Notes: generated by a model not told the origin, from the letters alone. Positions 6,627 to 63,989 are shown, counted from the first letter of the stretch. The stretch is DNA of 64,000 nucleotides from an uncultured Rhodothermaceae bacterium (GCA_964503085.1 CAZCYQ010000014.1:211-64210); one strand, 5' to 3'. Numbers and translations: made by a program.

Positions 6627-7688
6627 TCCTCTGGGTAGGGGTATATTGGATTTGGCAGGATGTGGTTGAGCAGCCGGCTATTGATTAATTGTTCGGTTGC
6701 GTAGCTTCGAGTAGATCAACTACTCCCTCATCAGGAAGTTAGAACGGGGCATACACTGCCTTGTACAAACGGTTGCACTATCAGAAACTTCCAAGGTTTT
6801 TTGGAGCGCGTACTGGAATAGGCCGGTAAAACCGTCAAAGACGGATTTCACAAAGTTTAGTTCGGATGCGACATACAAGTCAAAATTGATACTTTCACTT
6901 TCCCATCAGACATATCGTCTAACCTTGATACCGCCTGGAAAGCAACAAGAAGTACACAGCTGAAACTTTTCCCTTAATCAGACCCGCTTGCGCCGTCGTC
7001 TTTAGACCTGTCGTGCGTCGCTTACCCAATATCAATTACTGAGAGCTAGCCGATGAGTTTGCCAAGTTCTTAGCTGATATGTGCAGAGACGAGGACCTCG
7101 AGTTCAGGTTGCTTGATGGCATAATTGTTGAACTTGATCAAGTACCACTGGATAACGTAATCGTCGTCGCGAGTGAGAATACCACGGACGAGATTTACTG
7201 GATCTCGGTCGTATAGACAGCCGGTAAGGACTCAGCCTAAGATCTTACGCCAGGCCGGCTCACATCCATTAACTTAATCGCCCCAAGATCCGAGCAACTA
7301 CCCAGTCCTTCACGAAGTCGCAAAGGGGAATCATTAGGGCGCAATCACTCACCTCTTGACCAAGGAATTGGAAGACGGTATATACTGGGTTTCGTTTGAT
7401 GGTAAGTACTACTGCGATCAGCAGGGATCGGTCGACTTTTACCCTCTGCGGGGATTCTCCAGGCGATGGATACGCTTGACGCTTCTGTCCCAAGGCACGA
7501 CAAAAAATGGACTATCTTCATTATCCAGAAGGGATAATTGAGGACAACGACATCTACATTTTACATCGACGGGACTAAATTCCAGACAAAACTGGCTGAG
7601 GGGCCAACACACTGATAAAAACAGAAGATTCCCAATACGCAACCCTTAAGAATTTCTGAGTCAGTTTATAGAATTGGAGCGTGAGAAA

Positions 7689-7811
7689 ATGAAGGCACTG
7701 GAGGAGATTTGTGGTAATCTTGCTCCAATTCCGTTGGAAGCTGAACAGTTTACGGAACACCATCACGAGAGACCCACAACCCGAACGGCTGGGGAGCCAC
7801 AAGAAAAATGA
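7689..7811 (+). CDS. Possible 40-aa upstream ORF translationally coupled to the DUF4041/T5orf172 gene
   Basis: ATG at 7689 ('MKALEEICGNLAPIPLEAEQFTEHHHERPTTRTAGEPQEK'). Its TGA (7809-7811) overlaps the downstream ATG (7808) as ATGA. 'ggag' lies about 9 nt upstream. Too short to appear in the supplied track. Confidence 0.25.
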   Translation: MKALEEICGNLAPIPLEAEQFTEHHHERPTTRTAGEPQEK

Positions 7812-9139
7812 CACTTACATCAATCATAATCCTCATACTATCCGTCTCTGTGATAGTCGTAATTCTAGTTGTGCTTTGGCGCACTCTCAAGGAGCTAAAC
7901 AACATTCGAACCAGATTTGCACCAGCTATCTCCCTTCAGAAAGAAGTCGACCTGTTGGAGGGCACAAAAAAAGAAGTACTTGCCGACATCCAAAAACTCA
8001 AGGAAGACTACAAAGTAGGTCGGAAGACCTTCGAGCGTCTAAATGAGCAAATCACATCCTATAATGAGGAATTGGCATTTCGGGAAATGGGCGTCTATGA
8101 ACCGATCTTTGATTTCACAGACTCTGAGGAATACAAAATGGAAATCAAGAAGGTGAGGGAGCGCCAGAAAGCCAGGATCAAAGCGAAGACAGCCGTAATA
8201 GTCAAAACGGAATGGACAGTAGGCGGTAGTAAAGCAAAAGGACGTACAATGGTTAACCGAGCTGTTCGCCTTACACTCAGGGCGTTCAACAATGAGTGCG
8301 ATGTGGCAATTGCAAAAGCCCGATGGAATAATGTGCATGCGATGGAGAATCGGATTAAGCGTGCCGCAAAGCAGATCAACGCACTTAATGCATCGAACGA
8401 CCTTGAGATTCATGATGAATACCTCAAGCTGAAAATGGACGAACTGCACCTTACGCATGAGTACAAAGAGCGCCTGCAAGAAGAGAAGGAGCTGCGAAAG
8501 GAGCAAGCCAGATTGGAAAGGGAAGAGCGGCGCCTGCAGTCCGAAGCAAAAGCGGCTGCAAAAGAGGAAGCAAAGTATGCTCGGATGCTTGAAAAGGCAA
8601 AGAAGGAAGCGGGTGGCGAAATAAGTGCAGAGCTCCAGGCAAGGATCGACGAGCTAGAGAAGTCGTTACGGGAATCTCAAGAGAAGAAAGAGCGCGCACA
8701 ATCCATGGCAGAGCAAACGAAGGCCGGACACGTCTACGTCATTTCAAATATTGGCTCGTTTGGAAAATATATCGTCAAGATCGGAATGACCAGGCGCCTA
8801 AATCCTGACGATCGAGTTAAGGAACTGGGTGATGCCAGTGTACCTTTCATCTTTGATACGCATGCAATGGTTTATTCCAAGAATGCCCCTGAGCTGGAGA
8901 AGACTCTCCACAAGCGTTTCAATGATCACAGGGTAAACGCCGTCAATATGCGCAAGGAATTTTTTCAGGTACCTCTAGAGGACGTCGCCTCAGCAGTCCG
9001 AGAGTTTGATTCTGACGCTCGTTTTGTGATGGACCGAGAAGCCCGAGAATACATGGAAACCCTTGCTCTACGGGAACAGATGGACGCAGCACAGGAGGAA
9101 TTTGAAGAGCTTGAGGAACAATTTCCACTAACAATTTGA
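7808..9139 (+). CDS. DUF4041-like / T5orf172 (MUG113, GIY-YIG-related) domain protein with N-terminal TM helix and long coiled coil
   Basis: N-terminal TM 'IIILILSVSVIVVILVVLW'. Charged heptad-like region 'EKELRKEQARLEREERRLQSEAKAAAKEEAKYARMLEKAKKEA'. C-terminus 'GHVYVISN...VKIGMTRRLNPDDRVKELGDASVPFIFD...HKRFNDHRVN...REFFQV' matches the T5orf172 pattern. Confidence 0.7.
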   Translation: MTLTSIIILILSVSVIVVILVVLWRTLKELNNIRTRFAPAISLQKEVDLLEGTKKEVLADIQKLKEDYKVGRKTFERLNEQITSYNEELAFREMGVYEPIFDFTDSEEYKMEIKKVRERQKARIKAKTAVIVKTEWTVGGSKAKGRTMVNRAVRLTLRAFNNECDVAIAKARWNNVHAMENRIKRAAKQINALNASNDLEIHDEYLKLKMDELHLTHEYKERLQEEKELRKEQARLEREERRLQSEAKAAAKEEAKYARMLEKAKKEAGGEISAELQARIDELEKSLRESQEKKERAQSMAEQTKAGHVYVISNIGSFGKYIVKIGMTRRLNPDDRVKELGDASVPFIFDTHAMVYSKNAPELEKTLHKRFNDHRVNAVNMRKEFFQVPLEDVASAVREFDSDARFVMDREAREYMETLALREQMDAAQEEFEELEEQFPLTI

Positions 9140-9162
9140 TTAGTCAGAGGAAAAATGAAACA

Positions 9163-9191
9163 CCGGAAAACGCTTCTGGAAGTCTTATTTG
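9163..9191 (+). terminator. Weak candidate rho-independent terminator after the T5orf172 gene
   Basis: Hairpin ccggaa-aacgc-ttctgg (6 bp, including one G-U pair) at 9163-9179, followed by the T-rich 'aagtcttatttg'. Confidence 0.3.
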
Positions 9192-9437
9192 CGCCTTTGG
9201 CTTATGGTCAGTGCGGTTAGATGATTGTTCATGACCGGCTACTGTGTACGAGCTATAAGGGGTAGACAAACGAACGGCCATATGTCCAATTCTCACAGGA
9301 TGAGACGATGGTCGCCACCTCTTCAAGGAGAATCAAGGTGCCGGATGGTTTTTGATCCTGGAAGTTCCGACTTGCAACGTGATCCAGAAAATCCATCTAT
9401 TGTGCTACCTGCGAATCAGGCCATGCCATGGCCGACA

Positions 9438-10091
9438 TTATTTATCCAGAAATTTTCTGAGTTTAATGTCGGATGCATAGAATATCTTCATGCGGTATCC
9501 CCAGACCTTCCGTCGAATCTCTTCACGAATTTCAGCAAGCTCAACCTCTATTTCTCTTATTGCCTGTTCTTGCACCTCTGGTGAGAGCTTTTCGCCCGTT
9601 TCGTTCTCGTACTTCTGAATAGAATACTGGGCTACATCGATGAATCTTTCAGTTAAAATATTTTGACTGAAGGTATCCAGGAAGCGGGGGGATTCGCTGG
9701 TGTCCTTTTCTTCGATATCAGGCGAGCCATCTTCCTCAACGGGTAGCTCAATCCCTATTTCTTTAAGTGACTCGTCCAGGGAGTCAAATATTCGAACAAC
9801 CCTTTTGAAGCCGCTGACGCCCATCACCTCTTGAATTATACTCGGGAGCGAACATATGCCAAACAGCTTCTCTGAAGTAGCATATTCTTTTGCCACGATA
9901 AGCAAAATGCGCAACCCTGCACTGGAAATAAACGAGACTCTGGAAAAATCCAAAATCAAGCTCAAGTCATCAGGCTTGATCTCCGAGTTGATCAGGTTAT
10001 GAAAAGTCGTGCTACTCGGGCTGTCGATTCTTCCGCGAACATCACCAAACAGAAACAAATCTGATCTTCTCCAAGAAATTGATACCGACAT
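9438..10091 (-). CDS. STAS-domain protein (anti-sigma-factor-antagonist-like) with acidic C-terminal extension
   Basis: 'LILDFSRVSFISSAGLRILLIVAKE...LFGICSLPSIIQEVMGVSGF' is a typical STAS core. Start trimmed to the ATG at 10091 ('MSVSISWRR'). Confidence 0.6.
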   Translation of the reverse strand: MSVSISWRRSDLFLFGDVRGRIDSPSSTTFHNLINSEIKPDDLSLILDFSRVSFISSAGLRILLIVAKEYATSEKLFGICSLPSIIQEVMGVSGFKRVVRIFDSLDESLKEIGIELPVEEDGSPDIEEKDTSESPRFLDTFSQNILTERFIDVAQYSIQKYENETGEKLSPEVQEQAIREIEVELAEIREEIRRKVWGYRMKIFYASDIKLRKFLDK

Positions 10092-10259
10092 ATTTCGATG
10101 AATAAATGATTCTAGTATTTGTGGAAATGGCCTCACCCTCCAGTTTTCCGCTGAACATACGATGTGTCGCAAGGCAAGGTCAAATCACGGGGTGATTCAG
10201 CCGAAGTAAAGGACTTTTTGCATCGGATTCCTGGGGCTTGGCTGAACGACTGGGAGCAG

Positions 10260-32015: not shown

Positions 32016-34048
32016 CAGGGATCGTCTTATTGGGCATTCTCAGCTCTCCTGTTTTTGGGCAGGATACGACTGCCTTCTGTCTGACGCATGCGCATGGCCG
32101 TACGGGAGCTGTCTTACCTGTGATCGGCAAGGCAGGTGCTCGACCGATACATGAAAACGAGCCGGCAGGTATGCGAGGTGCAAACGACACCCCAGACAAG
32201 GCAGAGCCACTTGGCGTACTGGAGAGTTCAGGGGTTCAAATTACTGGAATGCTGTCGCCAGAGCCTCCCATTCTGTTTAGTGGTTCGGATGAGGAAGTAG
32301 TTGATGATGGAGCAATCCAGTTAGCTCTCGAGGTGCACCTGGTCAGTGGGACACGTGTACAGGTGCGGGGCGTCATTGGCGATGGTCTTCACGGTAGCCA
32401 GGGCGGAAACACCGGAGATTTTGACTTCTATCGAATGGGTGCGTTGCTTGCGGGACAGAGAATAACGATAGATGTTGACACCTCTCCTGCTTCTCCCGGA
32501 CTTAACAGCAAGGTAGCCCTCTATGATAGCACGGGTATGCGGCTGAATGCCAGCAAGAATGGTGGAGACGGTGATAGAAACAGCTATTTAGAGGTGGTTA
32601 TTCCGGTAGATGGGGTTTACTTCGCGGTTGTTCGCGGAACTAACTCCTGGTGGCCGGACGATCCTTTTGATCCTGCCTCAGGCCCAAAAGCAGGTAGCGA
32701 AGGTCCATATATTCTCACGCTTGGCGTAGATGCAGAAGATTTTGACTGGTATAGCTTGGACATGCAGGCAGGGGATGTATTGAGTGCAGCAGTTGAAGAC
32801 TCAGCCCGCCATCTGGTACTTGCGGATGCTCATGGCACGGTTCATTTAGCGTCAGACCTTGACCGCAGTGATCTATTACCCGTTACAAGTCCATTGCTTA
32901 AAGGAGGAAATGCGAACTTTGCGCTTATCATCGCTGAGACAGGGAGATATTATTTTCGTGTAGGTCATGGAGCCGGTGGTTACTCGGTGACATTAACCGC
33001 TCGTCGTGCGGGGCAGGAGCAGGGATCCACCCAACAGGTTTTATTTGTGGATTTTGATGGTGCTGATTTTGATGCGCAGTTTCTTGGGGGTCGTGCTGAT
33101 GCAAAGCTTTCCCCTTTGCGCAAATTTTTGGAGAATCAGGGTATTGCGCAGGACGAAGATCACATCATTGATCTCGCACTGGCTACATTCAAGGAAAATC
33201 TGGTTGATGACATACAGGACGCGTTGGCGGTCGATGTGTTTTTGGATATCCAGAACAGCAGAGATCACCCGGATTCCTGGGGTGCGTCTAACGTAAGTCG
33301 TGTGATTGTTGGTGGAAGCCGGAGTGAGCTGGGCCTAGAGACGATCGGCATTGCTGAAAGTGTGGATGTGGGCAACTTTGTCTTGAATGAAACCGCTGTT
33401 GTGCTCCTGGACCGAATTACTGACCCGCTATGGGAGCCCTCTTTTTCTGCGGTACAGCGTGCTCCGGGCGTTTCGATGGCCGACCTGCTCGGGTTGGCGC
33501 TGGGCAATATTATTGCTCATGAAGCGGGACATTTAATTGCCAGTTTTCATACCGGACACGCTGATTATCCCTGGCAGATCATGGATGCAAGTCCCGAAGC
33601 AGCGGGATTTCTGGGAGCGGGGCCGGACAAAATACTGGGCACGGAGGACGACCTGGATGTAGATTTGGGTGTATCTCCTTATTGGGAACTTGAGGGTTTT
33701 GTTGGCCTACAGGATTCCCGTACGGCGACATTTTACGGCCTAGGTGGTGCGTACGTAACGCAGTTGGTCTCACGGGTTTTTCCATTGGACGGAAGGATAG
33801 GCGCAGTATATCCAAACCCCTCCCATGACCGGGCTTGGTTACCTGTTACACTTGAACGTGCTGGGCCGCTGCAGCTTGAGTTCTATGATATGCTCGGTCG
33901 TCGTCAGGTGAGCGTGGGCCAGAGTGTGGTGCCACGGGGCCACTCGGACGTATTGCTTCCGGTGAATTTATTGGCACCGGGAACCTACTTGCTGCGTGCA
34001 AGGCTGAATTTTGGCACTATAGGGCGGAAGCTTGTTGTGCTTCGGTAG
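31997..34048 (+). CDS. T9SS-sorted secreted protein with metzincin-like Zn motif and PPC-like domains
   Basis: Signal peptide 'IVLLGILSSPVFGQ'. 'GDFDFYRM' and 'DFDWYSL' (pre-peptidase C-terminal-domain-like). 'HEAGHLIASFH' (H-E-x-x-H-x5-H). C-terminal 'VYPNPSHDRAWLPV...LEFYDMLGRRV...GTYLLRA' is T9SS type-A CTD-like. Overlaps the upstream stop by 19 nt. Confidence 0.7.
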   Translation: MGARSIAGIVLLGILSSPVFGQDTTAFCLTHAHGRTGAVLPVIGKAGARPIHENEPAGMRGANDTPDKAEPLGVLESSGVQITGMLSPEPPILFSGSDEEVVDDGAIQLALEVHLVSGTRVQVRGVIGDGLHGSQGGNTGDFDFYRMGALLAGQRITIDVDTSPASPGLNSKVALYDSTGMRLNASKNGGDGDRNSYLEVVIPVDGVYFAVVRGTNSWWPDDPFDPASGPKAGSEGPYILTLGVDAEDFDWYSLDMQAGDVLSAAVEDSARHLVLADAHGTVHLASDLDRSDLLPVTSPLLKGGNANFALIIAETGRYYFRVGHGAGGYSVTLTARRAGQEQGSTQQVLFVDFDGADFDAQFLGGRADAKLSPLRKFLENQGIAQDEDHIIDLALATFKENLVDDIQDALAVDVFLDIQNSRDHPDSWGASNVSRVIVGGSRSELGLETIGIAESVDVGNFVLNETAVVLLDRITDPLWEPSFSAVQRAPGVSMADLLGLALGNIIAHEAGHLIASFHTGHADYPWQIMDASPEAAGFLGAGPDKILGTEDDLDVDLGVSPYWELEGFVGLQDSRTATFYGLGGAYVTQLVSRVFPLDGRIGAVYPNPSHDRAWLPVTLERAGPLQLEFYDMLGRRQVSVGQSVVPRGHSDVLLPVNLLAPGTYLLRARLNFGTIGRKLVVLR

Positions 34049-34333
34049 CTGGATTCTTCGGTACTACCCCGGAAGACAGTTCCAGTACACAGCATGCTCT
34101 CAAGTTTGTTTGATTATCGCTAATCCTCTGGATTACAACTCGCCATAACCCCTTTGTGCTGCCCCATCCTCATTGCGCACGGACGGGCCCTGCAGTTCCT
34201 TCTGTACTACCGGAGGAATTGTGTTAGCCGAAGCCTCTTGGCGCAGGTTCACCGGAATCATGTAGAATTTACATCTCTCACCAAATCAAAAGCTGTATAT
34301 TGCCAACTCAATCCATCAAATCTCATTTTGAAG

Positions 34334-34837
34334 ATGCGAAACTCTACGTTGCTTATTGTAACGATCACACTCATCGCGTTGTCGGGTTCTTACGAGCAGG
34401 TTCGTGCACAGGCTAATTCATTCGACAGTTTCGGCTACACTTATACATTCGACAATTTTGGCTACAGTAGTCTTTCTGCCGCTCCTCTGAGTTTCAAGAG
34501 TACATCAATGCTAGGTATGACTAAGTCACGATCATTCCGGACACACAGTTCAAATAACACTGGCGTTAGTGTAGATTTTGTAATCATTGGCGAGATAGGT
34601 CTGAAAGAAACGTTGACAAGTGCAGATTTGGGCAATCATTTCAATGAAATGGTTTTGTCATCCTCGCGACCAAAACACACATGTGTATTGGCCAAGGGCT
34701 CGACTCCGTCTCAAAGAGCAGGCTTTGATGAATGCAGAGCCAATCTCCCGGATTGTGATAAGATGAGATGGGATGTGAGCGGAGAGGGTCACCGGATCCT
34801 CTCCTGCAAGTGTTACCGAATATTTAGCAGTTGTTAG
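34334..34837 (+). CDS. Hypothetical small secreted Cys-rich protein
   Basis: ATG at 34334 gives the signal peptide 'MRNSTLLIVTITLIALSGSYEQVRAQ'. Internal repeat 'FDSFGYTYTFDNFGYS'. 7 Cys in the C-terminal half. No homolog recognised. Confidence 0.35.
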   Translation: MRNSTLLIVTITLIALSGSYEQVRAQANSFDSFGYTYTFDNFGYSSLSAAPLSFKSTSMLGMTKSRSFRTHSSNNTGVSVDFVIIGEIGLKETLTSADLGNHFNEMVLSSSRPKHTCVLAKGSTPSQRAGFDECRANLPDCDKMRWDVSGEGHRILSCKCYRIFSSC

Positions 34838-35042
34838 TCTTCTCTCTGGTGCAATCCCTCTTTGGGATACAATCAGGAAAGATCGCTTCTGTTGTTCTGG
34901 AGGCGAGGGCAACAATCTTAAGGCGCAGGAGGCGCACTGGTCTGGAAGTCTCATAAAATTTGGTAATTCAAACGTCCGCCGGGGTCAATGAATCGTTCCC
35001 GCGGAATATGGATATCTCTGCAACAGTTTTGGTATTTTGCAG

Positions 35043-35060
35043 TTTTAGCCTAGCCTAAAA
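35043..35060. promoter_or_regulatory. Candidate metalloregulator operator (imperfect 9+9 inverted repeat) upstream of the metal ABC operon
   Basis: 'TTTTAGCCT|AGCCTAAAA'. The half-sites match 8/9 as an inverted repeat. Ends 12 nt before the ATG at 35073. Confidence 0.3.
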
Positions 35061-35072
35061 ATGTAGAATATC

Positions 35073-36017
35073 ATGCGTTTGGCTGCGCTAAGTATCATGG
35101 TGCTTGGTCTGCTGATGTCTTGCACTTCAGCGGAAGAGGAGATTCCTCCACTTGAAGATCGCGCGATCAGGGTTGTAGCAACCACGAGTATTGTTGCGGA
35201 TTTGGTACGTGCAGTTGGTGGGGCGGACGTAAGTGTCGAATCGTTGATGGGGCCGGGGGTTGATCCGCATCTATATAAGGCCAGTGCCCGCGATGTCAGT
35301 AAAATGGTTGACTCTGATATCGTGGTTTATAATGGTCTGCATCTTGAGGGTAAGATGGGGGATCTGTTTGAGGCGATGGCTGAACGGGGGAATCCGACCG
35401 TTGCAATAGCTGAGGTCAGTGTTCCCGATAGTTTATTGCGAGCGTCGGAGCTTTTTCAAGGCAATTATGATCCGCACATCTGGTTTGATGCTGAGCTGTG
35501 GGCTCGTGCTGCAAATGCACTTGCCAATGCCTTAGGGGCCCTGGACGCTACGCGTGAAGATACGTTTGCAGCGCGAGGAGATGCTTATGCGGACGAACTT
35601 CTGGCGGTACATGCTTACGTGCAGAAGAAAGCTGATAAGATACCAGAGGAGAAGCGAGTACTCATAACCTCTCACGATGCATTCGGTTACTTCGGGCGGG
35701 CGTATGGGTTTGAGGTTCGAGGGCTCCAGGGAATTTCCACCGCATCTGAAGCAGGTGCAGCAGATGTACAGAATCTGGCTGTACTTGTAACTAAACGGCG
35801 AATTCCGGCGATGTTCATCGAGTCATCCGTTTCCCCACGTGGTATAGAAGCCGTTCGGGAAGCGGTGAAGGCCAAGGGCTTTGATGTCAGTATCGGTGGC
35901 ACATTGTATGGGGATGCGCTGGGCGGACCATCCACACAGGCAGCCACGTATCTGGATATGATCCGCTACAATATTGATACGATCGTTGAGGCACTCTCGA
36001 ATGGCGAACGCAATTGA
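35073..36017 (+). CDS. Metal (Mn/Zn/Fe) ABC transporter substrate-binding lipoprotein, TroA/ZnuA/MntC cluster A-I
   Basis: Lipobox 'LLMSC'. Metal-ligand regions '[10 protein letters not shown]' and 'YDPHIWFD'. 314 aa. Confidence 0.9.
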
Positions 36018-60291: not shown

Positions 60292-60307
60292 TCTTATAGC
60301 AGACCGA
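60292..60307. repeat. Left copy of an imperfect direct repeat bracketing the NYN/NACHT cassette
   Basis: 'tcttatagCAGaccga' lies 44 nt upstream of the ATG at 60351. It matches 'tcttatagaccga' at 63348-63360 (8+5 identical nt with a 3-nt indel). Confidence 0.35.
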
Positions 60308-60350: not shown

Positions 60351-61052
60351 ATGATTCTTCTTGTTGATTACGACAATCTTCCGAGGTCATTAAGAAGGGG
60401 GAATTTACGTCAGGTTATTGAAATACTGTTGGCAAAATTGGACCCCTCAACTGCAGACTCTATCAATAGGATCTCTTGTCGACTATATGGAGGTTGGATG
60501 CAAAACAAAACATTATCACGGGAGGCTCAGCGACTTTCACGACAAATCGATCGATACTTTCCGTTGGCTTTCGCACTGTCTGACCGTGCCAATGTAGTCG
60601 TAGAAGTTGGATTGGCAAGAGCACTTGCGTGTGATCCGCAACATGTCTTCACTCACACAGTCAGAACACGGCCAGAATCAGCGTTTAAGGTTAAACGGTT
60701 CCCCCTTAAAGAATGCGTGGCACCGTTTAGTTGTAGAATTATGGATGTAAATTCGTTCGTATACAACAAAATCTGCCCTAACACGAATTGCAATGTATCG
60801 CCAGAAATAGCATTTTTCCGAAGAGAGCAGAAACTAGTTGATTCAATGATGGTTGTTGACTTAGTGCACTATGCAATTCATCAAGAAAAACACCTAGTGG
60901 TAGTGTCTGGAGATGATGATATGTGGCCAGGCATCCGGTACGCATTGTTACAAAATGCCATGGTTACCCACCTAATTCCAAAACCTCTTGGCCGGCGAAG
61001 AAGTCCGTACAAACGACTATCTGCCAAGAATTACACCCTCGTAGCATTGTAA
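60351..61052 (+). CDS. NYN/PIN-like (LabA/limkain-type) putative nuclease with Cys4 insert
   Basis: Beta1 acidic motif 'LLVDYDNL' (aa 3-10), 'QKLVDSMMVVDL' (aa 160-171), 'VVVSGDDDMWPGI' (aa 183-195): the three acidic blocks of the NYN fold. Insert carries 'C..PFSC...(11)...C.NTNC'. 233 aa. Confidence 0.6.
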   Translation: MILLVDYDNLPRSLRRGNLRQVIEILLAKLDPSTADSINRISCRLYGGWMQNKTLSREAQRLSRQIDRYFPLAFALSDRANVVVEVGLARALACDPQHVFTHTVRTRPESAFKVKRFPLKECVAPFSCRIMDVNSFVYNKICPNTNCNVSPEIAFFRREQKLVDSMMVVDLVHYAIHQEKHLVVVSGDDDMWPGIRYALLQNAMVTHLIPKPLGRRRSPYKRLSAKNYTLVAL

Positions 61053-61068
61053 TTGTAGTCCCCTACCG

Positions 61069-63336
61069 ATGCAACTCGAAAACTTTAAACGTATCGTCAC
61101 CACATTCGCAGATGAGGACAGTGATCTAGCTGTAGATGGAGATGGAACTCTCCTACTTGGGATTCGAGGAATAGAGGTTGTAGCACAGATTAAGCGAGAC
61201 CCCCATGGAGTTAGAGTTAAACACGAGGGGGTTGAATGGGCTGCAGAAAAGTGGATATTTTCCTACCTCGCTAAACTTGACCGGCTTGCAGATCGAATCA
61301 TTAGTTCTGTATCTCCTCCTCCGCACTACGTATCCCCGAGCGGTGAGATTCTGAATTCGGAAAATCAAACCGATGAGAAATGTATTGACTCAAGAAAAGA
61401 AATTCTGAATCGACTCGATCAACATCCGGTTAACACGACCTTAATATATTTCTTGACCTCTGACGCGGGAGAAGGAAAAACCTCGCTAATTGAAAAAATC
61501 TCCGTTGATCAAGCAAAAGCATTTAAGAACAAAGAAACTTCGACACTGATCCTCCCGGTGCCTTTAGGAGGGCGCCCATTTTTGCGTTTCGACGATGCCG
61601 TCATCGCATCGCTTTCGAACCGGTTTCGTTTCCCATTTCTGTACTACGACTCATTTCTTGAACTTGTCAAGATGGGGGCAATTATCCCTGCATTTGACGG
61701 CTACGAAGAGATGCTATCCCAATCCGAATCCGGTGAAGCTATTTCGGCAATTGGTGACTTGGTGGGCCAATTATCATCCAGCGGAACTTTGTTGGTCGCA
61801 GCCCGAAAAGCATATTTTGATTCTTCATTAAGTTCCCAATCAAAATTGCTGGACTCTGTTCGTGAGGAGCAAAATGTAGAAATTCGCCGGTTCGCCCTGA
61901 ATCGTTGGAGTCGTGAAGTATTTCTCAAATACGCAGAAAAACGAAATGTCTCCAAACCTGAAGAACTGTACGACAAGGTTGCGGGCAGATTAAAGAAAGC
62001 CGATCATCCAGTTCTAACCAGAGCGGTACTTGTTCGAAGACTTCTGGATGTGGCCGAAGAGGAAAATGACCTAGATCAGTTTTTACAGCGCTTAGGTCAA
62101 TCGCAGACTGATTATTTTTTTGATTTTGTTGAAGGAATTGTTGATCGAGAAGTTAATCTTAAATGGATTGACAGCTCAGGCACTAACAAATCGCCTCTGC
62201 TCACACGTGATGAGCATCACGAATTGCTCTCAGAATTAGCATTCGAAATGTGGCATATTGGAGTAGAAGCTCTTGGCCTTGATGACGTTAGATCCGTTGT
62301 ACAAATTTTTTGCGATGGAAAGAATAAGACCCCAACCGTTCTAAGACAGATAAATAGTCGCATCAATGACCATTCGCTCTTACGCCTTGATCATTCCGCC
62401 GGCTCTACTAAGCGTATCAGATTTGATCATGAAGATTTTCAGGCATTCTATCTGGGCCAGGCCTTGGCCCGTGCCTTGGGTTCCATGGATGACTTAAACG
62501 CAAGACTGATACTTGATGCTCGTCAATTATCCAAACCAGTGATTGAAGAAGTTGCCCGTTACCTGACGGCCTCGGAATCCTCCACGATCCCGTCTAACAA
62601 ACTACTTGATGATCTTCATCAACTATCAAGAGGGAAACAGCATGCATCCTACATCCGGGAGAACTGTGGTGCACTGATGTTAGAATTAGCAGAACGTCTA
62701 GAAGAAAGTCATTCGATCACTGGTGTGAGTTTCCCCGCAAATGCTTTGGATCAACGAGAACTGAAAAACCTAGACGTATCGGATTCCTTTTTCAATTCAA
62801 CTAGGCTTTCCAATTCCAAGATCACCAACTGCTCCTTTACGAACTGTCGCTTTATTGAACTAGCATTTGATGGTAGGCATAACTTGGATGGGACCGTGTT
62901 TGATGACTGCGACTTTGACTCCGTTTCTATTGGAAATGATTTGGATGATGAGCATCGAAAATTCTTTAATCCCGCCAAAGTAAAAGCTATACTCATCAGT
63001 CACGGATTCAAGTTAAAGTCGCAGCAGGAAATAATTTGTGAAAATTCAGATCCCACCACGATGGATAGGGATTTGCAGACAGCCTTGCGTTTTATTCGAA
63101 TGTTCACTCGATCAACTTCTGTACCAGAAAGTTTTGCTCGCATTCGAATAGGCACAGAATCTGGCCGCTTTTTTCAGGCGCTCCTACCCAGGCTTCAACA
63201 CGCAAGGTTGGTGGAGACCACGGGGAAGCTCAAGAATAGACTCCGCTTGAGGGTTCCGCTGTCTGAGATAGATAGACTTGTTGAGAACTCAGGAGGCTCG
63301 TTTGAACAATTTATTGCGGACACATCAATTCGGTGA
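61069..63336 (+). CDS. NACHT-type STAND NTPase with C-terminal pentapeptide-repeat domain
   Basis: Walker A 'SDAGEGKTS' (K137). Walker B-like 'IIPAFDGYEE'. 'LLVAARKAYF' (cf. NACHT 'hhhTSRP'). 'RFDHEDFQAFYLGQAL' (cf. NACHT winged-helix 'F.H.sfqEyLaA'). Pentapeptide run 'NLDVS DSFFN STRLS NSKIT NCSFT NCRFI ELAFD GRHNL DGTVF DDCDF DSVSI' (aa about 566-620). Starts 16 nt after the NYN gene. Confidence 0.65.
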   Translation: MQLENFKRIVTTFADEDSDLAVDGDGTLLLGIRGIEVVAQIKRDPHGVRVKHEGVEWAAEKWIFSYLAKLDRLADRIISSVSPPPHYVSPSGEILNSENQTDEKCIDSRKEILNRLDQHPVNTTLIYFLTSDAGEGKTSLIEKISVDQAKAFKNKETSTLILPVPLGGRPFLRFDDAVIASLSNRFRFPFLYYDSFLELVKMGAIIPAFDGYEEMLSQSESGEAISAIGDLVGQLSSSGTLLVAARKAYFDSSLSSQSKLLDSVREEQNVEIRRFALNRWSREVFLKYAEKRNVSKPEELYDKVAGRLKKADHPVLTRAVLVRRLLDVAEEENDLDQFLQRLGQSQTDYFFDFVEGIVDREVNLKWIDSSGTNKSPLLTRDEHHELLSELAFEMWHIGVEALGLDDVRSVVQIFCDGKNKTPTVLRQINSRINDHSLLRLDHSAGSTKRIRFDHEDFQAFYLGQALARALGSMDDLNARLILDARQLSKPVIEEVARYLTASESSTIPSNKLLDDLHQLSRGKQHASYIRENCGALMLELAERLEESHSITGVSFPANALDQRELKNLDVSDSFFNSTRLSNSKITNCSFTNCRFIELAFDGRHNLDGTVFDDCDFDSVSIGNDLDDEHRKFFNPAKVKAILISHGFKLKSQQEIICENSDPTTMDRDLQTALRFIRMFTRSTSVPESFARIRIGTESGRFFQALLPRLQHARLVETTGKLKNRLRLRVPLSEIDRLVENSGGSFEQFIADTSIR

Positions 63337-63347
63337 ATTGACGGTCT

Positions 63348-63360
63348 TCTTATAGACCGA
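63348..63360. repeat. Right copy of the imperfect direct repeat bracketing the NYN/NACHT cassette
   Basis: 'tcttatagaccga' starts 12 nt after the stop at 63336. It is embedded in a 6-bp hairpin cggtct-tcttat-agaccg (63342-63359). Confidence 0.35.
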
Positions 63361-63480: not shown

Positions 63481-63989
63481 CTATACCGCCTTGCTTGCGC
63501 CAGTCCAATCGCCGCGGAGCAAATGGTTCCGGGCCGGCTGGACATGGAATCTAGGAACCTCTGGATCTAATATGGCCACTCGCTCAAGGTGCTCCCTTGC
63601 AAGTTCTGACTCACTCGTTTGAAATACAAGTTTCACGCACACCCTTCCAATGCTGCAATAAGTGCGAACTATAGGGCGCCTACCGTCGGGGTAGTCTATA
63701 CGCGGCTTTTGGTGGTAATCCATGTCTGTAAAGTGCTCCGGTATGCTTGATCCAAATCTTCAAGGCGGGTAAAAAAGCGTTTTTGGACTGCCAGACTTGT
63801 TTGGAAGCGTCCCTGGTATGGGCCCAAGTGTCTTATGGAGCAAAAGGACCGGTCTGCTAATCTCCTACCGGAGCTTCCACACGGTGGAGCCATGCCGTGT
63901 GTAAAGCATATCCAGGCTACCCGTATCCGCAAGCATCCACTGCAGCGTCCAATGGATTCTCCAAGGCCAGGGCGATTCCCCTTGATTTA
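63481..63989 (-). pseudogene. Possible degraded IS200/RAYT-like (Y1 transposase) remnants
   Basis: Two overlapping short ORFs in different frames. 'GPYQGRFQTSLAV' resembles the family block 'G.lfQGRFKS.lv'. 'PRIDYPDGRRPIVRTYCS' resembles 'DY...G.YFVT.CT'. 'RFHVQPARNHLLRGDWTGAS' resembles 'YIh.NPvrAglv...dWpwSS'. The HxH core was not found. Weak, by eye only. Confidence 0.25.

Follow-up and report, generated by a model that had tools for sequence, protein, structure and literature searches.

The cassette discussed here comprises two genes, gene A and gene B, found among sulfate-assimilation and UDP-glucose dehydrogenase genes of an uncultured Rhodothermaceae bacterium, within a window of 64,000 nucleotides that represents the whole stretch of DNA analysed. 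The locus raises the question of what the two gene products do together and whether, as an original prediction made from the sequence had it, they form an undescribed STAND-type defence system. We infer from its context that the operon most probably serves as a so far uncharacterised system of anti-phage defence, and the best reading of the pair is as a two-component bacterial NLR-like system with a separately encoded NYN effector.

The cassette and its flanks

Both open reading frames are intact and lie exactly where the original prediction placed them, with 16 nt between them (Table 1). The motifs quoted for them are also in place: LLVDYDNL, VDSMMVVDL and VSGDDD are found at residues 3, 163 and 185 of gene A, and GEGKTS (with K137), IIPAFDGYEE, LLVAARK and FDHEDFQAFYLGQAL at residues 134, 205, 241 and 452 of gene B. 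These are real genes and not chance open reading frames, since more than 1,182 full-length homologs exist for gene B and at least 70 for gene A. The suggestion that the cassette is compositionally foreign is borne out as well. A recount of the three 60-nt spot values gave identical numbers (24/60, 18/60 and 35/60), and the cassette has a GC content of 0.443 where the window averages 0.508 (3-kb windows, SD 0.016), which makes it the lowest-GC 3-kb stretch in the window. The GC3 values of its two genes are 0.39 and 0.41, compared with 0.50-0.55 in three upstream genes.

Table 1. Positions of the cassette, its domains and its flanking repeat within the window
Feature	Position	Strand	Description
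Left direct-repeat copy CTTATAGCAGACCGA	60293..60307	+	44 nt upstream of gene A start codon
Gene A	60351..61052	+	ORF, 233 aa; LabA-like NYN (PIN-like) predicted nuclease, putative effector
Gene A cysteine insert	60651..60821	+	aa 101-157; predicted zinc-binding (Zn-ribbon-like) module; pLDDT 61-69
A-B spacer	61053..61068	+	16 nt; tight operon junction
Gene B	61069..63336	+	ORF, 755 aa; NACHT-type STAND NTPase with pentapeptide-repeat C-terminal region; putative sensor/switch
B N-terminal domain	61069..61413	+	aa 1-115; family-specific alpha/beta; proposed adaptor for gene A
B nucleotide-binding domain (NBD)	61414..61848	+	aa 116-260; Walker A, Walker B, sensor-1
B helical and winged-helix domains	61849..62703	+	aa 261-545; H313-P314 motif, F452-D453-H454 motif; AF2 secondary structure
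B pentapeptide-repeat region	62704..62964	+	aa 546-632; predicted right-handed beta-helix; proposed sensor surface
B linker and C-terminal alpha/beta domain	62965..63333	+	aa 633-755; AF2 secondary structure
Right direct-repeat copy CTTATAGACCGA	63349..63360	+	13 nt past gene B stop codon

The cassette is bracketed by a short direct repeat, as had been noticed. The pattern CTTATAG, followed by 0-3 nt and then ACCGA, is found at 60293 and 63349 and nowhere else in the 64 kb, where 0.01 occurrences would be expected by chance, and an ungapped repeat finder is blind to it because the copies differ by a 3-nt indel. The repeat is absent from related loci, identical Logan contigs excepted, and its right copy lies within a weak hairpin (-9.1 kcal/mol, z = -1.6) that is not significant. 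The downstream region on the minus strand that had been described as transposase-like debris (63481-63932) finds no support: Pfam (even at E ≤ 10), Rfam, a tRNA search and tblastn against 72,556 plasmids all gave no match.

A predicted NYN nuclease and a NACHT-type NTPase

The assignment of gene A to the NYN fold stands on family profile matches and invariant acidic residues, whereas Foldseek does not confirm the fold. By itself, gene A falls 0.5 bit short of the Pfam NYN model PF01936 (23.7 bits, cutoff 24.2) in an alignment that covers only profile positions 71-114 of 145. The model is nonetheless matched by 27 of 35 family members (E ≤ 0.01, best 5e-7), many homologs carry a precomputed PF01936 annotation, and one member is annotated by JGI as a 'LabA/DUF88 family protein'. 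In the 35-sequence alignment no variation is seen at D6, N9, D164, D170, S186, D188 or D190, and D8 and D189 are at least 90% conserved. The AF2 model (pLDDT 81) has alternating beta and alpha elements and positions the acidic residues at strands 2-6 and 182-185 or immediately past them, and where helix 162-178 begins. The resulting pattern, hhhDxxN / KxVD...D / SGDxD, is the three-block order typical of LabA-type NYN domains. Foldseek searches of PDB and BFVD returned nothing below E 0.01: the PDB matches are generic and Rossmann-like (best E 0.076), and among the weak BFVD matches an 'NYN domain protein' ranks fourth (E 0.13, TM 0.39) and a 'LabA-like/DUF88' protein seventeenth. The insert of about 57 aa, with the moderate model confidence found there, may hide the core of the protein from Foldseek; no relative of gene A in PDB is detectable by sequence or by fold. 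From its sequence, gene A is predicted to be a nuclease with a LabA-like NYN domain.

The Cys4 cluster proposed for the insert is present as C122, C128, C142 and C147. Among the 35 sequences C142 is at least 90% conserved and the other three do not vary, and in a set of 66 sequences C122, C128 and C142 are at least 95% conserved. With LabA/DUF88-type NYN proteins (PF01936) and the eukaryotic NYN RNases MARF1 and Regnase-1 gene A shares the three conserved acidic blocks, along with the Pfam matches of its family. It differs from them in that this insert, rich in cysteine, separates the two halves of its NYN core, N-terminal and C-terminal.

Gene B, as was originally proposed, belongs to the NACHT-type STAND NTPases. 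With its AF2 model (pLDDT 81) the 45 best Foldseek matches are all animal NLR proteins with NACHT modules, namely NLRC4, NOD2, NLRP2/3/5/7/9/14 and NAIP5 (E 5e-13 to 2e-7); the first ORC/Cdc6 AAA+ protein is at rank 46, and neither Apaf-1/NB-ARC nor a solved Avs structure is found in the top 50. The alignments to the NLRs run over approximately 540-760 columns, and the low global TM-scores (0.2-0.4) arise because the domains of gene B are arranged differently. Profile signals are weaker. The Pfam NACHT model PF05729 matches neither gene B nor any of 32 family members (E ≤ 0.05), nSTAND_NTPase5 matches 13 of the 32 (best E 0.003) with AAA_16 also giving a weak signal, and two family members are automatically labelled 'NACHT domain-containing protein' by UniProt.

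The four hallmark motifs of the module are at least 97% conserved in the set of 66 sequences. The Walker A consensus (GxxGxGK[ST]) is represented by A133, G134, E135, G136, K137 and T138, and the Walker B segment I-I-P207-A208-F-D210-G211-Y-E213-E214 reaches this level at P207, A208, D210, G211, E213 and E214, with the extra acidic residues of its DGxEE being typical of NACHT. Sensor-1 is R246, within L-L-V-A-A-R246-K at the end of the model strand 240-246. The winged-helix segment F452-D453-H454-E-D-F457, between strand 448-452 and helix 455-471, is conserved to the same degree at F452, D453, H454 and F457, and we take it to be the equivalent of the F-x-H-x-x-F winged-helix motif in NLRs. H313 is likewise at least 97% conserved, and P314 at least 90%.

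The N-terminal domain appears to be specific to the family. A phmmer search of 1.84 billion representatives gave 90 matches, essentially all of them N-terminal in family proteins of about 750 aa or in short proteins, probably pieces of these; one match is to a 338-aa repetitive protein (P0250). Residues F13, W62, A68, L73, A74 and R76 of this domain are at least 97% conserved (66 sequences).

At the other end of the protein, the tandem pentapeptide repeats, of the A(D/N)LXX type, are present and in register, with F, L, I or V at the central position, but they number about 13-14, spread over aa ~553-622 with a single bulge of 6 residues, and not the eleven or so first counted. A beta-helix is supported from three sides. 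Pfam Pentapeptide_4 matches gene B at E 5e-4, below its 38-bit cutoff, and matches 25 of 32 members; the family profile finds McbG-like and MfpA-type chains in PDB at positions ~552-616 (E 1.4e-4 to 4e-4); and the model has regular short beta-strands across 548-632. Pentapeptide proteins such as Qnr, MfpA and the McbG-like proteins are DNA mimics that bind gyrase. The profile match indicates that gene B has in common with them a right-handed quadrilateral beta-helix, but its helix is of only about 85 residues (about 4 coils) and is set inside a multidomain NTPase. In the C-terminal domain beyond it, R677, R681, F701 and P707 are at least 97% conserved (66 sequences). Neither Pfam nor PDB gives a sequence match to this domain, and the order of its modelled elements (helix-strand-helix...strand-strand) suggests a winged-helix-like fold.

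Conservation is graded along gene B. The NBD is the most conserved region (mean entropy 1.07 bits), compared with 2.4-2.9 bits for the HD2, pentapeptide and linker regions, and the pentapeptide region is among the most variable (2.39 bits). This gradient matches NLR logic.

Pairing, spread and genomic context

The two genes are conserved together. A homolog of gene A is found in 78 of 80 genomic loci anchored on gene B, nearly always directly upstream, and one of the exceptions is a contig edge; conversely, gene B follows gene A in all 57 metagenome loci anchored on gene A that have room for it. In 65 of 65 intact pairs from other genomes the distance from the A stop to the B start is between -20 and +16 nt, and no third conserved gene accompanies the pair in the 80 loci. 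The pairing looks obligate. The genes also diverge together (Pearson 0.87, Mantel p 0.001). When distant pairs are compared, gene A tracks the N-terminal domain of gene B (r 0.40, the best of the B domains) and its NBD (0.37) and does not track the pentapeptide (r 0.17) or C-terminal (0.09) regions, as expected if the N-terminal side of gene B works with gene A and the C-terminal side evolves against outside targets.

Gene A is inactivated by IS insertions and frameshifts about 10 times more commonly per kb than gene B, an excess that is consistent with a costly or toxic effector. The same bias could reflect a toxin-antitoxin-like or addiction module, in which gene B holds an NYN toxin inactive or under stress regulation and the pair is kept since its loss is harmful or since it stabilises mobile DNA. 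Preferential inactivation of gene A is what would be seen with a toxin, and if gene B neutralises gene A then loss of B would be lethal and loss of A neutral; gene B is indeed rarely disrupted. The obligate operon with its small nuclease gene first and its overlapping or nearly overlapping junctions, together with a patchy, horizontally spread distribution, also suits such a module. We nevertheless consider it unlikely, as an NTPase of the size of gene B (755 aa), with its NACHT module and variable repeats, makes an atypical antitoxin and the absence of the family from plasmids speaks against plasmid stabilisation. Toxin-antitoxin-like behaviour and abortive-infection defence are in any case compatible and not mutually exclusive.

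Members of the family occur in more than 10 phyla, and none of the 80 loci is syntenic with the flanks of the pair in the window. The operon is horizontally acquired; its mobility follows from this spread, from flanks without shared synteny, and from the low GC content and flanking direct repeat seen here. In about 8 of the 80 loci the pair is embedded among type I restriction-modification (R-M) hsdS, hsdM and hsdR genes. Immediate neighbours match PADLOC models for type I R-M, BrxU/GmrSD-like HEC-05/06, Menshen NsnA, Thoeris ThsB and several PDC candidates; such matches make up around a quarter of the immediately downstream neighbours, a raw tally drawn from per-family counts, and are also found upstream. 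The pair is prophage cargo in two loci (L156 and L158), and in the first of these, from IMG/VR, it lies between tail sheath/DNA invertase and baseplate/tail-fibre genes. The family is rare in IMG/VR, with 5 contigs, and none of 72,556 plasmids or 50,697 phage genomes contains it.

Most loci, including this one, are nevertheless placed among housekeeping genes and not in obvious defence islands, and a Rhodothermales subgroup (L003, L004, L006-L008) retains the pair at one syntenic site. LabA-type NYN proteins also include regulators without a known defence role. These points would fit a signalling or RNA-metabolism module outside of any conflict, in which a cue from within the cell is sensed by gene B, which controls a LabA-like NYN RNase and through it the regulation of particular transcripts. 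Such a role appears very improbable against the sporadic distribution of the pair, its foreign composition here, its embedding in type I R-M operons and prophage accessory regions, the tandem duplications and divergent paralogous pairs found among the loci, and the rapid variation of the sensor region of gene B. These features are hallmarks of conflict, and for this reason a conflict system is preferred over a housekeeping regulator.

Relation to known systems and a proposed mechanism

The pair matches no named system in PADLOC v2.0.0 (2023) or NCBIfam release 20 (June 2026). Gene B has no match in PADLOC-DB v2.0.0, the Avs models included, and NCBIfam gives only sub-threshold matches, mostly to pentapeptide-repeat models (HalA, 18.6 bits against a cutoff of 250). 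No description of the two-gene system was found in the searchable literature. The term undescribed thus holds for the two-gene system but not for its domain types, which are already recognised; pentapeptide repeats, for instance, have been listed as a NACHT sensor type (Kibby et al., bioRxiv 10.1101/2022.07.19.500537).

A close comparison is with the bNACHT proteins, for many of which an anti-phage role has been demonstrated (Kibby et al., bioRxiv 10.1101/2022.07.19.500537). Gene B shares with them the central NACHT module with an identical motif set and C-terminal superstructure-forming repeats as presumed sensors. It differs in that the putative effector of the A-B system has a gene of its own, found in essentially every case, that its N-terminus is a family-specific domain without a catalytic appearance, and that no family member reaches the Pfam NACHT model; NYN is unmentioned by Kibby et al. 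(bioRxiv 10.1101/2022.07.19.500537). Most characterised bNACHT and Avs systems are single genes with fused effectors (same reference), so gene B could defend alone through its N- or C-terminal domain, with gene A as an accessory that regulates B expression or processes the operon transcript. Gene B has two domains of no assigned family (aa 1-115 and 665-755) and is kept intact where gene A is broken (loci L002 and L009). The N-terminal domain has no recognisable catalytic family in Pfam, however, and occurs in no other architecture, gene A retains the full invariant acidic set expected from sequence of an active nuclease, and its presence in 78 of 80 loci is unusual for a dispensable accessory gene. 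Defence by gene B alone is accordingly judged quite unlikely, and a separate effector is preferred.

Avs proteins are STAND NTPases in which the C-terminal sensor binds a phage protein, after which the protein oligomerises and activates a nuclease or other effector (bioRxiv 10.64898/2026.01.04.697583). By analogy, the mechanism of Avs1-7 is the one assumed for the A-B pair, but Avs sensors are mostly TPR-like and helical and their effectors (e.g. Cap4, Mrr) are fused. The single-gene candidate HEC-09 is an NYN protein embedded in defence loci, a predicted RNase with three conserved aspartates, and failed to protect in tests (Payne et al., bioRxiv 10.1101/2024.01.29.577857). A predicted NYN domain and, for some copies of the pair, embedding in defence loci are common to both systems, but HEC-09 (an Hma-embedded candidate, PADLOC PDLC04163) stands alone, lacks an NTPase partner and has an HTH-like domain at its N-terminus. 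It is the only PADLOC match of gene A, at E 0.04 and 11.5 bits over the shared NYN core; the two do not belong to one family.

An adaptor domain links a sensor to a separately encoded partner in CARD-containing bacterial gasdermin and CARD-NLR-like systems. The A-B pair may follow a similar logic, but none of the searches showed its proposed N-terminal adaptor to be CARD-like, and the putative effector is an NYN nuclease and not a protease/gasdermin pair.

With moderate confidence we favour a two-gene NLR-like (NACHT/STAND) immune module in which gene B is the sensor and switch and gene A the separately encoded NYN effector; the trigger and oligomerisation of gene B, its contact with gene A, the substrate of gene A and the defence phenotype of the pair are those that we infer. 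At rest, the NACHT module would keep gene B monomeric. Its variable C-terminal region, encompassing HD2, the pentapeptide beta-helix and the C-terminal domain, would recognise an infection-associated trigger, and nucleotide exchange at the Walker A/B site would then lead to oligomerisation and the clustering of the family-specific N-terminal domains. The clustered N-termini would recruit or activate gene A, a putative metal-dependent NYN (PIN-like) nuclease and most likely an RNase, which would degrade cellular and/or phage RNA, so that phage production stops through abortive infection or growth arrest.

A more specific version, which we regard as doubtful, is that the short pentapeptide beta-helix, as a DNA-mimic surface, and the C-terminal winged-helix-like domain together bait anti-restriction factors or the DNA-binding proteins of phages, with the new N-terminal adaptor recruiting and activating the zinc-containing NYN RNase in trans. 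Such bait would fit the repeated embedding of the pair inside type I R-M operons. If this version were true, the pair would represent a new and widespread two-component class of bacterial NLR, and a bacterial counterpart, made of unrelated parts, of the adaptor-mediated recruitment of effectors by inflammasomes. More broadly, the A-B operon brings together a predicted NYN-type nuclease and a bacterial relative of the animal NLR immune sensors, and this pairing is widespread.

The gene pair as an obligate unit

Two genes make up the cassette: A, encoding a predicted NYN nuclease and putative effector, and B, encoding a NACHT-type STAND NTPase and putative sensor. In the window both open reading frames are present exactly where the original prediction had placed them, 16 nt apart, and all of the motifs that it quoted are found at the implied positions. 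The coordinates of the genes, of the domains of B and of the flanking features are collected in the table.

Features of the cassette, of the gene B protein and of the flanking sequence
Feature	Position	Strand	Description	Basis
Upstream genes	window:55332-60254		CitMHS/TrkA-C transporter; fused ATP-sulfurylase/APS kinase; UDP-glucose/GDP-mannose dehydrogenase family protein	
Gene A	60351..61052	+	233 aa	ORF
Gene B	61069..63336	+	755 aa	ORF
B N-terminal domain	aa 1-115		alpha/beta	AF2 model
B nucleotide-binding domain (NBD)	aa 116-260			AF2 model
B helical and winged-helix domains	aa 261-545			AF2 model
B pentapeptide repeats	aa 546-632		about 13-14 repeats	
B linker	aa 633-664		poorly conserved; model confidence partly low	
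B C-terminal domain	aa 665-755		alpha/beta	AF2 model
80-aa ORF	window:63481-63723	minus		called as gene in identical Logan contigs

A and B are an obligate unit. At 90% identity the B family falls into more than 1,182 clusters, whose proteins are all about 750-770 aa long, and co-conservation, which the original prediction had proposed as a check, is found in both directions. Among 80 genomic B loci from one-genome-per-species sampling, 78 harbor an A homolog, nearly always directly upstream and in the same orientation; of the two that do not, one is cut by a contig end. Conversely, B directly follows A in every one of the 57 A-anchored metagenome loci that extend at least 400 nt further downstream. 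The distance from the stop of A to the start of B lies between -20 and +16 nt in all 65 intact pairs. Clustering of every ORF that flanks the genes in the 80 loci gave no third conserved gene. A generic ABC-transporter ATPase makes up the largest cluster (16 loci) and was treated as unrelated, and the PADLOC matches to mad3 and AriA are probably generic ATPase matches of the same kind.

The two proteins also diverge together, their pairwise identities being strongly correlated (Pearson 0.87, Mantel p 0.001). In distant pairs, the divergence of A correlates with that of the N-terminal domain of B (r 0.40) and of the NBD (r 0.37), as against 0.17 for the pentapeptide region and 0.09 for the C-terminal region. 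The NBD is the most conserved part of B, with an entropy of 1.07 bits, and HD2, the pentapeptide repeats and the linker are the most variable (2.4-2.9 bits). This is the pattern to be expected from NLR logic, with a conserved switch, an effector-facing N-terminus co-evolving with its partner and a rapidly changing sensor.

Disruption falls unequally on the two genes: interruptions and frameshifts are far commoner in A than in B (binomial p 2e-4 to 8e-4, gene lengths taken into account). An ISL3-like transposase of 407 aa sits within A just before the SGDDD motif in one locus (L002:6596-7819), and an insertion of about 1 kb splits A after VDSM in another (L009:6668-7732). A is also interrupted or frameshifted in loci L004, L006, L020, L070 and L156, and B is split in L045, L070 and L077 only. 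This excess could fit a costly or toxic effector, and some of the breaks may be assembly errors in metagenome-assembled genomes (MAGs).

Predicted structures of the two proteins

In gene B, sequence profiles detect the pentapeptide region alone (Pfam Pentapeptide_4, E 5e-4), and it is over this region that the family profile matches McbG-like and MfpA-type proteins in the PDB (E 1e-4). The repeats had been foreseen in the original prediction, their number being about 13-14 rather than the about 11 given there. No Pfam, NCBIfam or PDB profile search assigns B to the NACHT class by sequence alone, and the call therefore needed structure prediction and Foldseek. The Pfam NACHT model is reached by no B member, and the sole STAND profile signal comes from nSTAND_NTPase5, matched weakly by 13 of 32 members.

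An AlphaFold2 (AF2) model of B, built from a 32-sequence alignment, has a mean pLDDT of 81. When it is compared with the PDB by Foldseek, ranks 1-45 are occupied by NLRC4 (5e-13), then NOD2, NLRP2/3/5/7/9/14 and NAIP5, with ORC/Cdc6 from rank 46 onward; the best 50 matches include no Apaf-1/NB-ARC and no Avs structure. Conserved at 97% or more in an alignment of 66 orthologs are the Walker A motif (G134-E-G-K137-T138), the Walker B motif with its trailing acidic residues (D210-G-x-E213-E214), the sensor-1 residue R246 and the winged-helix motif F452-D453-H454. On account of these NLR matches and motifs, B is assigned, from its modeled structure, to the NACHT-type STAND NTPases, in agreement with the NACHT-like call of the original prediction. 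The Thauera and Burkholderia latens orthologs are automatically named 'NACHT domain-containing protein' in UniProt, and the Lonsdalea ortholog is named 'pentapeptide repeat-containing protein' by NCBI.

The order of helices and strands in the model suggests that the C-terminal domain of B is a winged helix. With the N-terminal domain, an exhaustive phmmer search of 1.84 billion representatives returned 90 hits, essentially all of them the N-terminus of family B proteins of ~750 aa or short proteins, probably fragments of these. The domain is therefore, as far as sequence comparison goes, family-specific, with one repetitive protein of 338 aa (P0250) standing apart. Residues 46-90 of the domain are matched by this protein at five separate places, which points to repeats of a similar beta-hairpin unit.

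For gene A, the window protein scores 23.7 bits against Pfam NYN, where the cutoff is 24.2, with a match over its C-terminal half only, and 27 of 35 family members match PF01936 (best E 5e-7). Residues D6, N9, D164, D170, S186, D188 and D190 are invariant in the family, and their three blocks, hhhDxxN, KxVD...D and SGDxD, form the LabA-type NYN signature. Known NYN enzymes are mostly RNases. Between the two NYN halves lies an insert of ~57 residues with conserved cysteines C122, C128, C142 and C147, plausibly a zinc-binding module. The AF2 model of A (pLDDT 81) displays the alternation of beta and alpha elements that a PIN-like fold would have. Foldseek found nothing significant in the PDB or BFVD, with NYN and LabA-like proteins among the weak hits only, and the assignment is therefore limited to sequence profiles and motifs; PDB sequence searches, run once with the family profile and once with the member closest to LabA, gave no match either. 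The NYN call of the original prediction is supported by the profile and the acidic motifs, with no significant fold match in these two databases.

Hosts, mobility and genomic context

The pair is found, among other hosts, in Rhodothermales and other Bacteroidota, Acidobacteriota, Binatia, Planctomycetota, Spirochaetia, Myxococcota and Heliomicrobium, as well as in Beta- and Gammaproteobacteria (Thauera, Polaromonas, Burkholderia, Lonsdalea, Lysobacter and Rhodanobacter). The B family is also known from Firmicutes, and Mucilaginibacter is among its cultured carriers. Intact pairs occur in Lonsdalea quercina (WP/MFP1950417-18), the nearest enterobacterial source to E. coli, and in Burkholderia latens (WP_151063306) and Thauera (WP_004357357). 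The nearest relatives of the window cassette come from sponge-associated-type Rhodothermaceae/Bacteroidetes MAGs, and the exact cassette is present again in Logan assemblies of at least six sequencing runs.

The cassette was originally described as compositionally foreign, and the three 60-nt GC counts offered for this are all exact. Its GC content of 0.443 compares with a window mean of 0.508 (3-kb windows, SD 0.016) and no other 3-kb stretch of the window is lower; at third codon positions GC is 0.39 in A and 0.41 in B, as against 0.50-0.55 in the three upstream genes, which are ordinary housekeeping genes. Other low-GC patches (1-kb windows below 0.47; mean 0.508) occur at 6751-8500, 8751-10250 and 34001-35250 and may be further horizontally acquired segments. 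The flanking direct repeat was also recovered: CTTATAG[0-3 nt]ACCGA is present in exactly two copies over 64 kb, where 0.01 occurrences are expected by chance, 44 nt 5' of the A start and 13 nt 3' of the B stop. An ungapped repeat finder overlooked it because of a 3-nt indel between the copies. Hairpins around both copies are no more stable than those of shuffled sequence, and therefore no structural claim is made. A scan for sigma-70 promoters and intrinsic terminators, whose consensus may not suit this host, gave fewer sites than shuffled sequence and none upstream of A.

The transposase-like debris reported downstream is not borne out. The minus-strand ORFs at 63481-63932, searched singly and joined across an apparent frameshift, have no Pfam match even at E<=10; a tblastn search of 72,556 plasmids with the joined sequence was empty, and no Rfam family or tRNA was found downstream of the cassette. 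The 80-aa ORF within this region, itself without a Pfam match and not recognizable as a transposase, shows 41-52% tblastx similarity to L005:17587-17800, a segment of another Rhodothermales genome that lies 7 kb past the cassette there, on its downstream side.

Synteny of the window flanks is common to none of the 80 loci, and a common site is seen in one Rhodothermales subgroup only. In about 8 phylogenetically scattered loci (L029, L034, L043, L044, L061, L063, L074 and L075) the pair is nested in type I restriction-modification genes, with hsdS directly upstream (at L063:990-2294, just 5' of A) and hsdR/hsdM downstream (hsdR at L075:10289-13399, just 3' of B). This 'embedded gene' pattern is the basis of defence-system discovery by Payne et al. 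(bioRxiv 10.1101/2024.01.29.577857). PADLOC matches in the nearest flanking ORFs also include BrxU/GmrSD-like HEC-05/06, Menshen NsnA, Thoeris ThsB and several PDC candidates, and roughly one quarter of immediately downstream neighbors have a match, by a tally of per-family counts without a background rate. The defence-gene neighborhood is in this qualitative sense suggestive.

The pair occurs on five IMG/VR contigs. In one (L156) it lies inside a myovirus-type prophage, flanked on one side by genes for tail sheath, tape measure and DNA invertase and on the other by those for baseplate/tail-fibre and head. In L158, tail and tape-measure genes are found within a few kb of it. No member of the family is present in the collections of plasmids, phage genomes and complete E. 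coli genomes. One Rhodothermales locus carries two cassettes in tandem (L008:3251-6284 and L008:7280-10316). A Vicinamibacterales locus has, 2.5 kb away from its main pair and on the opposite (minus) strand, a second pair that is far more divergent (L015:12821-15782; E=3e-61 for B and E=4e-16 for A) and hints at a wider superfamily of NYN and NACHT pairs.

A candidate two-component defence system

STAND/NACHT sensors are already known in defence as bNACHT proteins, among whose listed sensor types are pentapeptide repeats, and whose genes are rarely in operons, those being poorly conserved (Kibby et al., bioRxiv 10.1101/2022.07.19.500537); NYN is never mentioned in that survey. The pair differs in its strictly conserved operon with a separate effector. 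The only NYN candidate in PADLOC, HEC-09, has a single-gene architecture, unlike A and B, and gave no protection when tested (Payne et al., bioRxiv 10.1101/2024.01.29.577857). Membership of A in HEC-09 was rejected, the match (E 0.04) covering the NYN core only and the architecture being different. Neither protein matches the anti-phage models of PADLOC v2.0.0 or NCBIfam r20, which agrees with the original view that the pair lies outside the named systems. In the searchable literature no paper on NYN, NACHT/STAND and pentapeptide repeats describes the pair, and none cites the family accessions. The 589 clades of a 2026 STAND survey may include this family (bioRxiv 10.64898/2026.01.04.697583). 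What appears to be new is the conserved operon, the separate NYN effector with its cysteine-rich insert and the family-specific N-terminal domain of B.

The pair may be read as a toxin-antitoxin-like module, as a non-conflict RNA-regulatory module, or as a B protein that works alone with A as an accessory. All three fit less well with its distribution, with its presence inside defence loci and with the invariance of the catalytic residues of A. The best-supported model is that of a two-component bacterial NLR. In this model, the NACHT module would keep B inactive at rest until a trigger binds its variable C-terminal region; nucleotide exchange would then lead to oligomerization of B, the clustered N-terminal domains would recruit or activate A, and the nuclease would shut down the infected cell. 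The pentapeptide beta-helices of Qnr and MfpA are DNA mimics, and by analogy the sensor of B may bait DNA-binding phage proteins.

A and B thus represent a well-supported, widespread and experimentally tractable candidate system of predicted function. STAND/NLR-type sensors are a central theme joining bacterial and animal innate immunity, and the characterized bacterial examples are nearly all single proteins with fused effectors. With sensor and effector split over two genes, the pair would offer a clean system in which to study the activation of a partner in trans by a NACHT oligomer, the signal sensed by a pentapeptide beta-helix and the substrate of a LabA-type NYN nuclease. Its validation would add an entry to the defence catalogue that is at present missed by PADLOC v2 and NCBIfam, and would give a function to 'hypothetical' and 'pentapeptide repeat-containing' proteins of cultured bacteria, Burkholderia, Lonsdalea, Thauera, Polaromonas and Mucilaginibacter among them.
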